Shown piece by piece: positions 20,375-49,682 of a stretch of 64,000 nt of DNA. This DNA is from Candidatus Eiseniibacteriota bacterium (GTDB lineage Bacteria > Eisenbacteria > RBG-16-71-46 > JABDJR01), in NCBI GenBank assembly GCA_963783375.1, contig CAWANH010000028.1, positions 1,920,001-1,984,000 on the forward strand, written 5' to 3'. Made by a program: the position numbers and the translations under genes. The stretch's first letter is position 1. Each line of letters starts with the position of its first letter. The notes under the pieces were generated by a model that saw only the letters and a program-made list of their open reading frames with translations, was not told the origin of the DNA and did not search any database.

Positions 20375-21359
20375 AACCTTTCGCGGCGCCCGTGTTCCCG
20401 AACTCTTCTCCCAGGCCCGGTCCGCGCTGGGACCGGATGCGGTGATTCTCTCGGTGCGGCGCCTGGACGGCGCCGACTTCGAGGTGGCCGCCGCGGACCC
20501 CGAAGCGGCGGCGGCCATCCGCGCCCGGGCGGCGGTCCGGGCCAAGGCCCTCCGGAGGCAATCGCCGGTCGAGATCGACACCGTCGGCGGGTGGGGGGTG
20601 GATCCGGGTGAGATCGCGGGCGGCTTCCGTCTTCCCGCGGCCGCTGCGCCCGCCTCTCCCGAGGCTGCACTGCCCGCGGCGGGTGGGGTCCCGCCCCGGG
20701 TCGCGAACCAGGTCCCGCGGACGCCGCCCGTTCCCTCGGCGAAGGGTCGTCCGCTGGTGATCGCCCTGGTGGGTCCCACCGGCGCGGGAAAGACCACCAC
20801 CGCGGCCAAGCTCAGCCGGAACGCCGCCGCCTTCGCCGGACGCCGGGTCGGGGTACTCACCCTCGATGGCTTCCGCGCCCGCGCGCTGGATCAGCTTCGG
20901 AGCTATCCCGGCCTCTCCGCCTTTTCCATGGCCGCGGCGTTCACTCGCGCGGACATTCGTCCGGCCCTCAAGCAGATGAAGGGGATGGATGTGGTGCTGG
21001 TGGACACCCCGGGGCGCGGTCCCCGCGGCCACGAGGACGCGGTGCGGATCCGGGAGTGCCTGTGGGCGCTCCGGCCGGACGAGGTGCACTTCGTCCTCCC
21101 GGCCGGACTCTCCACCGCCGCCGGACTCCGCGCCTTCGGTGAAGCGCGGAGCTTCTCGCCGACCCATCTGTTGCCGACCAAACTCGACGAGTATCCGGAG
21201 GACGTGGCGATCCTGTCCCTGGCGCGGCGCCTCGGGCTGGCGACGCGATGGGCCGCGGACGGGCAGCGCGTCCCGGGGGACCTTCGCGCCTTCTCCCTCC
21301 CCGAGCCGAGGGGCGAGCGTCCACTGCGACATGAAACCCTGAGCGTGGCGGGAGTGTGA
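20364..21359 (+). CDS. flhF: Flagellar SRP-family GTPase FlhF
   Basis: LGPDAVILS N-terminus, GPTGAGKTTT, DTPGR, TKLDE, GQRVPGDL. Confidence 0.92.
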   Translation: MQHETFRGARVPELFSQARSALGPDAVILSVRRLDGADFEVAAADPEAAAAIRARAAVRAKALRRQSPVEIDTVGGWGVDPGEIAGGFRLPAAAAPASPEAALPAAGGVPPRVANQVPRTPPVPSAKGRPLVIALVGPTGAGKTTTAAKLSRNAAAFAGRRVGVLTLDGFRARALDQLRSYPGLSAFSMAAAFTRADIRPALKQMKGMDVVLVDTPGRGPRGHEDAVRIRECLWALRPDEVHFVLPAGLSTAAGLRAFGEARSFSPTHLLPTKLDEYPEDVAILSLARRLGLATRWAADGQRVPGDLRAFSLPEPRGERPLRHETLSVAGV

Positions 21360-22231
21360 TGTCCGGTCCTTCCGAATCCACCTTCATCCCGGAGCCGGAG
21401 CGATCCGGACCGCCGCCGGGAGCGGCACCGGCGCCGCGGGTCGTCTCCACCGCGGGGGCGACTCCACGGGACCGGGCCGGAGACGAGCTCTGGACCCGGT
21501 ACCGCCGGGACGGGGACCTTCGCGCCCGGGACCAGCTCCTGGAGCGCCACCTGGGTCTCGTTCACCGGGCGGCGCGGGAGGTCGTGCGTCACGCGCCGGC
21601 CTCGCTCGAGCTGGACGATCTGGTGGGAGCGGGGACGGTGGGTCTGGTCCAGGCCCTGGAAGCCTTCGACCCCGGTCGCGGCTTCGCGTTCAGCACCTTC
21701 GCCATGCCCCGCATCCGGGGGGCGATCCTCGACGAGGTGCGCGGTTGGGACTGGGTGCCCCGCTCGGTCCGCGAGCGGAACCGTCGCATCAAGAAGGCCG
21801 CCGACGGTCTCCGGCGCATGCTGGGCCGGGAACCCGAACCGGCCGAGGTGGCCGCCGCCCTGGGCATCGACGTCGAGACCTACCAGCGGCAGGCCGCCGA
21901 TCTTCGGGACCCGGTCCTGGTCGCCTTCGATCCCGGCCCCGACGAAGCCGGTGAGGGGGGCGGTCTGGCCGAAGTGCTCCCCGACGAATCGGCTCCCGAC
22001 CAGACCGCGGTGCTCGAGCGGTCCGAGACCATGGAGGGTCTGGCCGAGGCCTTCGCCTCGCTCTCCGAGCGGGATCGCCTGGTGCTGACCTTGTCCTACT
22101 ACGAACGGCTCACCCTGCAGGAGATCGGGGAGGTCCTCCACGTGACCGAGTCCCGGGTCTCCCAGATCCGGACCCGCGCCCACAAGCGGCTCCTGGAGCG
22201 GATGGAACCACCCCTCGACCGGGCGGCGTAG
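21356..22231 (+). CDS. fliA: RNA polymerase sigma28 factor FliA
   Basis: RIRGAILDE.R..DWVPRS, L.YYE.LTL.EIGEVL.VTESRVSQI. Confidence 0.95.
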   Translation: MMSGPSESTFIPEPERSGPPPGAAPAPRVVSTAGATPRDRAGDELWTRYRRDGDLRARDQLLERHLGLVHRAAREVVRHAPASLELDDLVGAGTVGLVQALEAFDPGRGFAFSTFAMPRIRGAILDEVRGWDWVPRSVRERNRRIKKAADGLRRMLGREPEPAEVAAALGIDVETYQRQAADLRDPVLVAFDPGPDEAGEGGGLAEVLPDESAPDQTAVLERSETMEGLAEAFASLSERDRLVLTLSYYERLTLQEIGEVLHVTESRVSQIRTRAHKRLLERMEPPLDRAA

Positions 22232-22469
22232 CTCCGGACCTCTGTCGACGCCGCGCTTTGGCGGAGCGCCCGGGTGCCCGACGAGGAGGCGGGCGACATG
22301 GGGAGGCGATCCCCGGGCCGTTCCGCGCTCTCGGGTGCTGGAGCTTCGCGCGCGGGGCCGCCTCGACGCATCCTCCCTCGCGGCCTGCCTGGAGGCGCCT
22401 GCCCGCAATCGCTTTGGTTTCGACCCTCCCGAGGGACCCGATCTCGAGATCAGATCGCGGACCCAGGTA

Positions 22470-22515
22470 TTGGCAATCGGCCACATGTTGTGGCAATATG
22501 GCCACGTCTTGTAAC
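22470..22515 (+). promoter_or_regulatory. Promoter with tandem inverted-repeat operators for the wHTH gene
   Basis: GCCAC-ATGTT-GTGGC (22480-22494) and GCCAC-GTCTT-GTAAC (22501-22515), 21 bp apart, overlapping TTGGCA...CAATAT. Confidence 0.5.
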
Positions 22516-22530
22516 CATTGGAGCCTGTCC

Positions 22531-22869
22531 ATGATCCCTGCACTCGAAGCCCTGTTTGGCAGCCGGTCTGCAGCACAAACCTTGTTGTTCTTGCAGAACT
22601 ACGGTGAGGGACATGCCCGCCGGATAGCCGCCACATTCGATGTGTCCCACACGGCCATCCAACGGCAGCTGCAGCGCCTGGAAGCCGAGGGCATCCTCGT
22701 CAGCCGTATGGTCGGTAACACCCGGGTTTTCACGTGGAATCCACGCAGCGCCACAGTCAAGGAATTGCGCAAGTTTCTTGAGACCGAGTTGGACCGTCTC
22801 CCTGACGACCTGACAAAGCAGTACTTCCGGCAACGCCAGCGCCCACGCCGTAGCGGCAAAGCGCAATAA
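22531..22869 (+). CDS. Winged helix-turn-helix protein (ArsR-like; putative antitoxin/regulator)
   Basis: LEALFGS, IQRQLQRLE.EGILVSR.VG.TRVF.WNP; GGAG RBS. Confidence 0.75.
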   Translation: MIPALEALFGSRSAAQTLLFLQNYGEGHARRIAATFDVSHTAIQRQLQRLEAEGILVSRMVGNTRVFTWNPRSATVKELRKFLETELDRLPDDLTKQYFRQRQRPRRSGKAQ

Positions 22870-22872
22870 CCC

Positions 22873-23421
22873 ATGGGAATCAACGCGGGCACCACAGCCG
22901 TGGAGTTGGCCGCATTGGTCAGTCAGGCCTTGGAGGCTGCCGGCATCCAAGCAACGTTGTCAGGCGGCGGTGCAGTCTCCATGTACACCGACAATGAATA
23001 CAAGTCTGAGGACCTCGATTTCGTCACCGCCGAACGACGTGACCGGCTATCCGCCGCACTGGAGCCCCTTGGGTTCACCCTGGCCAGTGATCGGCGCCAT
23101 TTCACGCACCCAGGCACCGGACTGTTTCTGGAGTTCCCGCCTGCCCCCCTCGAGTTTGGCAGCCGGGTTGTGCAGCACGACGACATTCCCAGGATGAATA
23201 CGCCATGGGGACCGCTACGCGTCATCAGCCCGACGCTCTGCGTAATGGATCGTCTGGCCGCTTACTGGCACTGGAATGATCGCCAGTCCTGGGATCAGGC
23301 CGTGTTGGTGGCCAGACATCAGGACGTGGACTACGCGGAACTCGTCGCGTACGCGACGGATGAAAATGCCGACCCTCACGATATCGACAAGCTGCGCGAG
23401 CAGGCACGCCGACGACCTTAG
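22873..23421 (+). CDS. Putative nucleotidyltransferase-fold protein (AbiEii-like)
   Basis: LSGGGAVSMY....KSEDLDFV matches the GG..A...S.D.D NTase signature. Confidence 0.6.
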   Translation: MGINAGTTAVELAALVSQALEAAGIQATLSGGGAVSMYTDNEYKSEDLDFVTAERRDRLSAALEPLGFTLASDRRHFTHPGTGLFLEFPPAPLEFGSRVVQHDDIPRMNTPWGPLRVISPTLCVMDRLAAYWHWNDRQSWDQAVLVARHQDVDYAELVAYATDENADPHDIDKLREQARRRP

Positions 23422-23449
23422 TCACCTCAAGTCAACGTCGCCTTCCCCT

Positions 23450-23995
23450 TCATCGCAACTCGACATTGCCTCTGAGGTACGCCAATACCTGGCGAGCGCG
23501 CTCGTGAGGGCCCCCCGCCACCTCGATCGCGGGCACACCGAAGGCCCACCGGTCATCCAGGACGATGTCCAGAAGTTCCTGGTGTACGCGCCGCCTCAGA
23601 CGCACGTGGTCCAACTCGGACTCGGCCACGCGTTCCGGCTCTTCGATCGGGACGAATATGATGAGATCAAGCAGCTGCATGACATCGTGCAGCCCGGGCA
23701 ACCAGCGATCGACGTCGAACCCTTCCGGCTCGCCGTGTGCGATCAGGTAGGCCAGCATGTCCAACGGGCAACGGTCAAAAATGCAGTCTCCCTCGCTCTC
23801 AAAGATCGACTGGACCGAGCGCTCGAGTTGCAGTTCGAATTCCTCGATGCCGGGCATCTCCGCAAATGGGTGCCCCTCATCCTCGAGCAGATAGTACGGC
23901 TCATCGACCCGGCTGAACGCCGGAAGCGAACCGGCGAGTTCACCGACCAAGGTCGTCTTTCCGGTGCGATGTGCTCCTGAAACGGCGATTCTCAT
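23450..23995 (-). CDS. AAA_28/NadR-like P-loop ATPase/kinase
   Basis: MRIAVSGAHRTGKTTL Walker A, FDRCPLD.LAY. Confidence 0.8.
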   Translation of the reverse strand: MRIAVSGAHRTGKTTLVGELAGSLPAFSRVDEPYYLLEDEGHPFAEMPGIEEFELQLERSVQSIFESEGDCIFDRCPLDMLAYLIAHGEPEGFDVDRWLPGLHDVMQLLDLIIFVPIEEPERVAESELDHVRLRRRVHQELLDIVLDDRWAFGVPAIEVAGGPHERARQVLAYLRGNVELR

Positions 23996-24015
23996 GACCT
24001 GACCCTCGACCATCG

Positions 24016-24063
24016 GCCCAACATGGTGTTGAGCCTGCCAGGCCGACCCGTCACGGCCCTTGC
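24016..24063 (-). mobile_element. 3' half of an integron attC-like site
   Basis: Minus strand GCAAGGGCCGTGACGGGTCGGCCTGGCAGGCTCAACACCATGTTGGGC ends in a GTTRRRY core 20 nt before the ATPase ATG; no complementary 5' arm found. Confidence 0.45.
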
Positions 24064-24277
24064 TGCGGCGCCGCCCGCGACAAACTGGCTCCTAGGTTGA
24101 CCTGGGTGCCAACTACCCGGTTCGGGACAAGCGCCCGCCCACTTTTCACCACGAGCGATCTGGTTGTGCTCGCGCGCCCCCGGGCGCGCATGGTCCATGA
24201 TAGATGATGCACAGGATTGGCCCACACACGTTCATCCGTCGAGCGTCCGGCCGACCGGGGATGGTGCCTCCCTTGGT

Positions 24278-24365
24278 CGCGGACCCGACGTTCCCCCGGG
24301 TGAATGCGAGGTTCCCCCGGGTGTACCCGGGTACACCACGTTCGCGATAGATTCCTTATCGCGAC
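24278..24365. repeat. Degenerate single copy of the palindromic element found at 48.7-49.2 kb
   Basis: CGCGGACCCGACGTTCCCCCGGGTGAA vs CGCGGACCCGAAGTTCACCCGGGTGAA; palindrome GGTGTACCCGGGTACACC; GTTCGCGATA-N7-TATCGCGAC. Confidence 0.75.
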
Positions 24366-24737: not shown

Positions 24738-25427
24738 GTGCTGAACGGAATCGCCGACACTGCCCGCACGCTGTCCTACTACCTCCGCCGCCAGGAGGCG
24801 GCGGCCGAGAACGTGGCCCAGGCCAGCACCCAGGGATACAAGGCGGTGCGGGTGGCCGCCCAGGCCGCTCCCGGCACCGGTGCCCCGGAGGCGGTGAGCT
24901 GGACGGACTGGAAACAGGGCGCCCTCCGGGAGACCGGACGGCCTCTCGACCTGGCCTTCGAAGGGGATGGCTTTCTCGTGGTTCAGACGCCGGGGGGGGA
25001 GCGTCTGAGCCGCGGGGGAGCGCTCGGCCTCGACGCCGGAGGGCGCCTCACCGATGCCGACGGACGCCCGGTTCTGGGCCAGGGGGGACCGGTCTTCCTC
25101 CACGGCGGTTCGGTGGAGATCGGAAACGACGGGACGGTTCGGGTGGACGGCCAGGAAGCCGCGCGCCTCCGGATCGAGACGGTATCCGATCTCTCGACCC
25201 TCACCCGCCTGGACGGAGGGATCTACCGGCCATCGGGCAAGACCGCTCCGGCGCTCCCGGGACAGGCCGAGCTCCGGCAGGGCCGGCTCGAAGACTCCAA
25301 CGTCGACCCCGTTCTTTCCATGGTGGACCTGATCGGCATTCACCGCGCCTTCTCGGCCAACGCCCAGGCGCTCAAGGTGGTGGACCGCGTGCTCGGGATC
25401 GCGGCCACCGAAGTCGGGGACGCCTAG
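24738..25427 (+). CDS. flgF: Flagellar basal-body rod protein FlgF
   Basis: GGAGG RBS with GTG start; ENVA.AST.GYK, TGRPLDLA.EGDGF, LEDSNV. Confidence 0.9.
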   Translation: MLNGIADTARTLSYYLRRQEAAAENVAQASTQGYKAVRVAAQAAPGTGAPEAVSWTDWKQGALRETGRPLDLAFEGDGFLVVQTPGGERLSRGGALGLDAGGRLTDADGRPVLGQGGPVFLHGGSVEIGNDGTVRVDGQEAARLRIETVSDLSTLTRLDGGIYRPSGKTAPALPGQAELRQGRLEDSNVDPVLSMVDLIGIHRAFSANAQALKVVDRVLGIAATEVGDA

Positions 25428-48313: not shown

Positions 48314-48661
48314 TCCGGAGACGGGGCCCGTGCTCGTCGGTTGCAGGCAGGCGTTGTTCCTCGGGGGAGCTCCGGGCGCGGCCGTCGGACGGGTGCACCT
48401 CCCGCTTCTCGGGCCCGTTCCCTCGAAACGTCCCCCGAACGTTTCTTCGGTCACTCCGCCGGCGCGAGGGGGCCCCGTCACCGCCTCGCCTTCGGCTCGC
48501 CGGAGCCGCCCATCGCGCCGCCGAGCCTCTCGTCGCGCGAGGTGCACGCCGTCCTCGGCCGCGACCACGTCCCTCCCGGCGCGCTGTGGCGACTCGCTCC
48601 CGTTCACATGCCGTCTTGGCCCCGTGGATACCAGAATCCCGAAGGACGTAGTCATGACAAG

Positions 48662-49246
48662 GTTCGCGATAGAGACTTCAGTGCGACCCCGGGAACGAAC
48701 CGGTCCATCCCGCGGGCGCGGACCCGAAGTTCACCCGGGTGAACTCGTGCTTCCCCGGGGAAGCAATGTTCGCGATAAAGGTGTCGCCAAGAGAGGCCCG
48801 CGCGCGTTCAGCCGTCGAGCGCGTGACCGGCCCGAGCCGGTCCATCCCGCGGACGCGGACCCGAAGTTCACCCGGGTGTACTTGTGCTTCCCCGGGGAAG
48901 CAATGTTCGCGATAAAGGTGTCGCCAAGAGAGGCCCGCGCGCGTTCATCTGTCGAGCGCGTGACCGGCCCGAGCCGGCCCATCCCGCGGGCGCGGACCCG
49001 AAGTTCACCCGGGTGAACACGCGCTTCCCCGGGGAGGCAATGTTCGCGATAAAGGTGTCGCCAAGAGAGGCCCGCGCGCGTTCATCTGTCGAGCGCGTGA
49101 CCGGCCCGAGCCGGCCCGTCCCCGGACGCGGACACGCAGCACACCAGGGCGTACCCTGAGTTCACCCGGGTTTACTCCTGCTTCCCCGGGGAAGCAATGT
49201 TCGCAATAAAGTCTTTAGTGCGAACAAAATTCACCCGGGTGAACTT
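48662..49246. repeat. 137-bp tandem repeat (3 copies plus a degenerate fourth) rich in palindromes, bracketed by inverted-repeat sites
   Basis: Units start at 48700, 48837, 48974 and 49111; each has GTTCACCCGGGTGAAC, TGCTTCCCCGGGGAAGCA and GTTCGCGATA with minor variants; full inverted sites at 48662-48687 and 49199-49225. Confidence 0.92.
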
Positions 49247-49255
49247 CGCCGCACC

Positions 49256-49561
49256 TCACCCCGCCTTGCGCAGAACCTGGACCTCGGCGACGAGACGTTC
49301 GCCCAATCGGTCCTTCTCCGTCTCGAGGTCGAAACGGACCTGCAGGTTGAGCCAGAAGCGGTCCGTGGTGCCGAAGTACCGGGCCAGCCGGAGGGCGGTG
49401 TCGGCGTTGATGCCGCGGGTGCCGTGGACAATATCATTGATCCGCCGCGGCGGTACGGAGATGTCCTTGGCCAGGCGGTACTTGCTGATTTCCAGTGGAT
49501 GGAGAAACTCCTCCAGAAGAATCTCTCCGGGGTGCGTCGGTGGGAGCTTTCTTGCCGGCAT
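49256..49561 (-). CDS. higA: HigA-family addiction module antitoxin
   Basis: HPGEIL.EEFL.PL.IS.Y.LA, ADTALRLARYFGT...FWLNLQ..FDL. Confidence 0.95.
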   Translation of the reverse strand: MPARKLPPTHPGEILLEEFLHPLEISKYRLAKDISVPPRRINDIVHGTRGINADTALRLARYFGTTDRFWLNLQVRFDLETEKDRLGERLVAEVQVLRKAG

Positions 49562-49563
49562 GA

Positions 49564-49659
49564 TCAACCCCGGTGATGGTCAACGATCTCCACGTCGTGG
49601 GCGTCTCCGCCCGCCCAACGGAAACAGACACGCCATTGATCGTTGATCCGGATGCTGTA
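49564..49659 (-). pseudogene. higB: C-terminal fragment of HigB (RelE/ParE) toxin
   Basis: YSIRINDQWRVCFRW..GDA.DVEIVDHH*; no start codon, only about 24 nt from the GH1 stop. Confidence 0.85.
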
Positions 49660-49682
49660 GCGCGTTTTCCGGGCGCCCGTGC

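Follow-up and report, generated by a model that had tools for sequence, protein, structure and literature searches.

Between the flagellar genes fliA and flgF of Candidatus Eiseniibacteriota bacterium, a small gene islet is followed by a palindromic DNA element, which raises the question of whether this element brought the islet there or has a history of its own. The window, that is, the whole stretch of 64,000 nucleotides that was analysed, holds the element at 24.3 kb and related units at 48.7 kb (Table 1). The original prediction regarded it as a boundary element shared by the only two foreign-looking islands of the window, both with TA-like genes, and as a member of a dispersed site family that may deliver toxin-antitoxin (TA) or defence cassettes in the manner of pdif modules. 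The letters, positions, 18-bp palindrome and dyad that it described are confirmed in the sequence (CGCGGACCCGACGTTCCCCCGGGTGAA is present at 24279-24304 by a sequence check), and so is the low GC content of the islet, 62.6% over 22232-24218 compared to 69.0% for the genome. Regarding the gene identities, the wHTH and AAA_28 assignments stand, while that of the nucleotidyltransferase (NTase) is weak, its Pfam matches lying below cut-off. Just 5' of the wHTH gene, window positions 22470-22512 contain short direct and inverted repeats that are kept in the relative G003 and that we take to resemble a type IV TA operator.

Table 1. Features of the two repeat-bearing loci (window coordinates; strand given where the feature has one).
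Feature	Position	Strand	Basis or remark
fliA, left flank of the islet	21356..22231	+	annotation
wHTH gene, antitoxin-like	22531..22869	+	PDC-M05A match, E 4e-10
Nucleotidyltransferase-like gene	22873..23421	+	Pfam below cut-off: DUF2204 E 0.07, AbiEii E 0.08
AAA_28 ATPase gene of the islet	23450..24013	-	domain match
Degenerate integron attC-like site, right edge of the islet	24018..24108	+	profile match E 0.0014; IntI in genome
Full repeat unit: spacer module, 2-3 CCCGGG palindromes, dyad	24211..24365	+	homology; orthologous unit in G002
Imperfect 16-bp CCCGGG-centred palindrome, GTTCACCCGGGTGAAC type	24290..24305	.	sequence
Perfect 18-bp CCCGGG-centred palindrome; candidate DUF222-like HNH protein binding site	24320..24337	.	
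Dyad GTTCGCGATA-N7-TATCGCGAC (GTTCGCRATA-N7-TAKYGCGA)	24340..24365	+	always 3 nt behind palindrome
flgF-like gene, right flank	24738..25427	+	start codon taken from sequence
Second array of the repeat family: dyad, three 137-bp units, final unit and palindrome	48662..49243	+	
higA antitoxin	49256..49561	-	TIGR02607 above cut-off
higB remnant, C-terminal third only, abuts GH1 stop codon	49564..49682	-	

The 88 bp at 24278..24365 are the right half of a longer unit, since homology to the 48.7-kb units begins at about 24211 (75% over 103 nt, E 8e-13). The modules follow the same order at both loci, as had been claimed, but the palindrome slot and the two-armed dyads differ: at 48.7 kb, GCTTCCCCGGGGAAGC takes the place of the GGTGTAC palindrome of the 24.3-kb unit, and only the first and last dyads are two-armed. 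Rfam and tRNA scans returned no match on the 24.3-kb element. Integron attC core sites have the form RYYYAAC ... GTTRRRY, and neither the attC pattern nor the attC profile matched the 88-bp element. The DNA closest to the AAA gene of the islet is instead the degenerate attC-like site at 24018-24108, the top non-training match of a profile built on three attC-like sites of the same genome. As for the 48.7-kb locus, the higB remnant (49564-49682) is common to the relative G002, and the type II TA loci next to arrays (this one and L043:6960-7060) both combine an intact antitoxin gene with a toxin gene whose front part is missing. Besides, a separate hairpin module of about 110 bp occurs in many arrays (window 48370-48480; L034:4400-5480; L107, L109), alone elsewhere in the source genome, and 3' of nuclease genes in G003; compared to G002, the 24.3-kb unit has lost this module through a deletion between short repeats.

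The repeat is by no means confined to the two islands. Its core unit, a 16-bp CCCGGG-centred palindrome followed by three bases and GTTCGCRATAA, was counted 79 times in 22 intergenic arrays of the source genome (G000), with no match to the reversed-pattern control, and CCCGGG palindrome sites taken alone number 127 (control 0). A dispersed site family therefore exists, whereas a boundary element peculiar to islands is not confirmed, in view of this copy number, of the presence of the element on one side only of each island, and of the attC-like site lying nearer to the AAA gene. The arrays are mosaics of few modules situated between core genes, and their spacers recur within and between arrays, on which ground a CRISPR array was rejected. 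Most units are one-armed; the two-armed dyad matches have inverted 10-bp arms around a 7-bp centre that is constant in 22/22. Neighbouring genes are mostly housekeeping ones (sdh/suf, pyrD, argR, pcnB, malic enzyme, dinB), with slightly lower codon scores (P 0.014) and 9% versus 5% of atypical genes. Co-occurrence of the element with low-GC islets, which the prediction implied, was not found in any of nine settings, 0 to 10 of the 22 arrays lying near low-GC DNA against an equal or higher background.

Several single observations were made in the course of this census. Both dinB-like genes (L035:2293-3801 and L042:2573-3841) lie directly 5' of an array. A gene for a 1100-aa transglycosylase/transpeptidase ends with three palindromes that follow one another every 30 bp and are translated in frame (C28:72501-72576, L033). 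A lone perfect 31-bp version of the dyad, at L046:3900-3935 (about C28:1664900), borders a low-GC stretch that contains a sigma-54 activator gene. Rfam found no family on seven array loci except an unrelated TPP riboswitch (L044:8161-8272, above the Rfam gathering score).

If the dyad were a tyrosine-recombinase site moving TA or defence modules as pdif sites do, its anatomy and its breakpoints should reflect it. A pdif or dif module, in the accessible text of PMC6449649, is a 28-bp site made of an 11-bp XerC arm, a 6-bp centre and an 11-bp XerD arm. The inverted 10-bp arms and constant 7-bp centre of the dyad recall such a site, and its left arm is loosely like a XerC arm, but it has no XerD arm, and its ATAA and TTAT are 5 bp apart, compared to 6 bp in dif. 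The true dif-like site of G000 lies elsewhere, at C29:498436-498466 (C29:498445), at the GC-skew maximum and within 16 kb of xerC and xerD. Most units have a single arm, and the cargo is not flanked on both sides: both window islands and the locus L043 have a site on one side only.

The breakpoints point the same way. In G002, which shows 92% identity, flgF is immediately preceded by at least three units, the last of them 80% identical and in place. Homology between G000 and G002 continues through the 7-bp spacer and stops about 130 bp to its left, so that the island edge does not fall within the spacer, the place that the prediction had proposed to check. The NTase and ATPase genes were not found in G002, where a contig break separates fliA from the array; their absence is thus unproven, and the persistence of the element without the island in a relative is borne out only as far as this gap allows. 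In more distant genomes (G018, G024, G025), fliA and flgF are joined by a gap about 1.8 kb shorter and without the unit pattern. In two of three same-genus genomes, G001 and G003, no DNA match to the flagellar genes fliA, flgF or flgG was obtained. The short contigs assembled from six DNA sequencing runs contained no joint skipping the 24.3-kb island, and the joints seen at 48.7 kb derive from other arrays. In addition, homologues of the island genes occur without the element: the wHTH/NTase pair at other sites in G003 (72% identical) and on contig C10, an ATPase homologue in G001, and a second higBA. The missing XerD arm, the wrong centre, the dif site found elsewhere and the edge outside the spacer together argue that, as judged from sequence, the element is not a pdif-type cassette-delivery site. 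The proposed delivery of TA or defence cassettes thus finds no backing in these unpaired sites, in the G002 unit, in the element-free TA homologues or in the low-GC comparison, and the recombinase-site reading, already disfavoured by the breakpoints, appears highly improbable.

What remains of the link with TA genes is a matter of proximity. In G000, three of the seven TA-like loci found have an array less than 3 kb away, compared to 2.8% of genes (P 7e-4), which partly supports the claimed association and would suit a recombinase site; without the two discovery loci, however, the count falls to 1/5 (P 0.13), and the census is a partial one, covering the HTH_3, PIN and ParE families and a local tblastn only. 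Other cargoes are varied. Locus L043 carries a 3.1-kb insert, absent from G001, G002 and G003, with an HTH gene and a truncated toxin gene that is presumably RelE-like; G002 retains the array there, in a comparison that runs across a 100-N gap. Among metagenome relatives, a 545-bp integron-like cassette lies within one array, at a site vacant in G000 (L297), and an element with a group II intron RT has one end next to a dyad (L302). The modules on either side of the L297 cassette could be taken as paired recombinase sites, but the cassette bears attC-like ends of its own. In G001, an IS fragment, which we take to be IS110-like, interrupts a palindrome. Such varied cargoes with machinery of their own argue for a landing place and not a delivery site, and the arrays are thus likely to be passive landing places for other mobile DNA.

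The islet at 24.3 kb may be a case in point. Insertion of cassettes outside integrons by the attG route is described in the available part of bioRxiv 2022.09.11.507474; G000 likewise encodes a resident IntI and has orphan attC-like sites, one of them at the islet edge, whereas the junctions here have no GWT target and the likeness concerns the cargo, not the repeat. The array 5' of flgF would have come first, and the wHTH/NTase/AAA islet would have arrived later, to its left and by another route, possibly via the resident integron integrase. At C28:633686-656000 (L027), G000 has an integron integrase gene (TIGR02249 above cut-off), followed on its strand by a cassette region that is low in GC and contains long attC-like sites; orphan sites of this type also occur at C3:72457-72591, adjoining a ParE gene, and at window 24018-24108.

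How far the repeat itself extends is informative about its nature. The exact unit occurs in 2 of 31 genomes, with 54 and 15 copies, and the dyad in 2 of 206 genomes from this phylum; sister genomes differ in copy number, and the unit is absent at the orthologous sites of G001 and G003. The first pattern run on metagenomes gave no match. Among 14 metagenome matches to the dyad, all four high-GC ones pair with CCCGGG palindromes; the ten others, being coding or low-GC, were taken as chance, and so were the viral-contig matches (1 and 4). The narrow taxonomic range is that of REP/BIME sequences. REPs also favour convergent gaps (PMC3733652, in its accessible part), and the arrays share the REP/BIME bias to unidirectional and convergent gaps: convergent-gene gaps hold 9 of the 22 arrays compared to 13.7% of all gaps (P 0.0016), the gene calls coming from our own codon model, under which 8/22 would still give P 0.007.

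This convergent bias, together with the likeness of the palindrome to the Noc site and the symmetric arm changes among palindrome variants, could also be expected of host-serving sites (binding sites for nucleoid proteins or regulators, or RNA hairpins downstream of genes) that slippage has multiplied and that have no mobiliser of their own. Nevertheless, sites serving the host sit poorly with a presence in only 2 of 206 genomes, with empty orthologous sites in G001 and G003 and with a copy number that varies between sisters, and a single strand of the repeat folds no more than moderately better than shuffles (z -1.9), which makes this explanation quite unlikely.

In REPtrons, the role of mobiliser falls to RAYT (PMC3733652, as far as accessible). 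Short intergenic palindromes, species restriction, mosaics, convergent bias and a candidate nuclease gene beside the repeats make the two systems alike; here, however, no RAYT was found, the units lack the GTAG/CGTC tag, and a loopless 16-bp palindrome comes with a second dyad. If an HUH transposase, since lost or missing from the assembly, had spread the repeats, and if the nuclease genes were mere passengers landing among them, the REP-like placement and the mosaic arrays would be accounted for, and other mobile elements land at the repeat too. Against it, no Y1 HUH transposase/RAYT (PF01797) match was obtained in G000, which is 97% complete, and no terminal GTAG or CGTC tag was seen when the unit listing was inspected by eye.

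The alternative partner is a multi-copy DUF222-like HNH nuclease. Five copies are present in G000, and 2 of the 22 arrays adjoin its genes (P 0.003), the other 20 having no adjoining nuclease gene. G001 and G003 lack one of the two genes, together with its unit, at the orthologous locus. The other gene is shared, but G001 has a single palindrome upstream of it, compared to six units in G000. In one of the four high-GC metagenome matches, a dyad and a palindrome stand 5' of a gene for such a nuclease; the corresponding site in G000 is empty. Family members carry HNH in 23/24 cases, HTH_ParB in 7/24 and DUF222 in 3/24, and relatives of this partner come from records of Ca. Eisenbacteria and Krumholzibacteria. 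The top matches of the predicted model (pLDDT 82) are Noc/ParB DNA-binding domains (TM 0.72 over the target, rmsd 2.5), with weak Foldseek E values of 0.03-0.06 and none at 0.001, and no CTPase domain is seen. The N-terminus is thus predicted to adopt a ParB/Noc-like DNA-binding fold. The Noc site shares the CCCGGG core, according to the accessible text of PMC7383237.

Nuclease and palindrome are associated across the class. A near-perfect 16-bp palindrome lies just 5' of the zinc-site codons (the 'linker') in 63/116 nuclease loci, compared to 6/113 N-terminal control windows; the C-terminal control window has 22/116, largely through one subfamily that keeps its palindrome there, which makes the N-terminal window the cleaner control. 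Ten loci duplicating existing ones had been removed before this count, and two loci without a C-terminal match earlier still. Such palindromes, at a fixed place within the nuclease coding sequences but in differing reading frames and in many genomes, speak against nuclease genes being passengers. Besides, palindromes picked at the nuclease loci of a given genome are scattered through it (25 in G004, 10 in G021, 7 in G003, 17 in G000, 7 in G002) and nearly absent from others; of 18 other palindrome loci checked, only one encodes the nuclease. On the other side, the strict CCCGGG linker palindrome is found in 0/5 of the G000 nuclease genes, as the lost transposase would allow; the dominant array palindrome gives only half-matches there, in the tail of one gene, the G001 nuclease genes are mostly without a linker palindrome, and none of the nuclease genes examined was seen to contain the dyad. 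A code relating recognition helices to sites gave a suggestive table but was rejected, near-identical helices going with different palindromes (L259 versus L216); the clustering relied on a quick tree and on the 65/116 loci with a palindrome call, and kinship alone may explain it. Overall, the model and the placement of the palindromes make it likely that the palindrome is a binding site of the DUF222-like HNH nuclease, and a vanished HUH transposase seems unlikely.

Taken together, these data are best explained by a young, lineage-specific REP/BIME-like family whose palindrome is likely bound by the HNH nuclease, which would seed new copies, the arrays probably collecting mobile DNA; a probability of roughly 0.55 is given to this reading. 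A nuclease dimer would bind the 16-bp palindrome and its HNH domain would nick or cut nearby, repair or unequal recombination might then copy units and expand arrays, and the arrays may recruit other mobile DNA. A broader proposal, put forward tentatively, is that DUF222-like HNH proteins form a second class of REP mobilisers, in which a ParB/Noc-like reader joined to a nuclease would carry its own site and distribute palindrome-plus-dyad units over the chromosome; its nicks at these units might create hotspots to which TA genes, integron cassettes, introns and IS elements are drawn.

The nuclease-based REP/BIME-like reading differs from each known system in some respect. The proposed partner is not a RAYT but an HNH nuclease, for which recognition of double-stranded DNA is predicted. 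DUF222-HNH/REP13E12 genes, in the accessible parts of PMC10589994 and PMC3592412, share the multi-copy helical domain, zinc site and HNH, whereas here they are tied to a dispersed palindrome family and its arrays, and most members fall outside the DUF222 model; the papers searched gave no mechanism for these genes. ParB-parS and Noc-NBS (PMC7383237, in part) offer 16-bp palindromes with CCCGGG or CACGTG cores and a similar predicted fold; here an HNH is attached, the model has no CTPase domain, a site lies inside the gene, and sites extend beyond the origin region. Acinetobacter pdif/dif modules, in the text available of PMC6449649, are likewise dispersed dyads sometimes near TA genes, but the present dyads lack a XerD arm and the right centre length, are unpaired, form tandem arrays and have breakpoints outside the spacer. 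In the open-access literature, as far as its texts were available, no description was found of DUF222/REP13E12 HNH proteins with palindromes or of Eisenbacteria repeats.

What is new here is the palindrome-plus-dyad unit, its arrays, and its filled and empty sites. To our knowledge, many REP-like families are without a known mobiliser, and we know of no mode of spread for DUF222-HNH genes. CGTC REPs, for instance, have no known mobiliser in the accessible text of PMC3733652. Here both the protein and the 16-bp site are defined, and sister genomes offer filled as well as empty loci, so that the link between protein and site becomes directly testable. Should foreign DNA be drawn to nicked arrays, the landing places of accessory genes would be set in part by selfish repeats.
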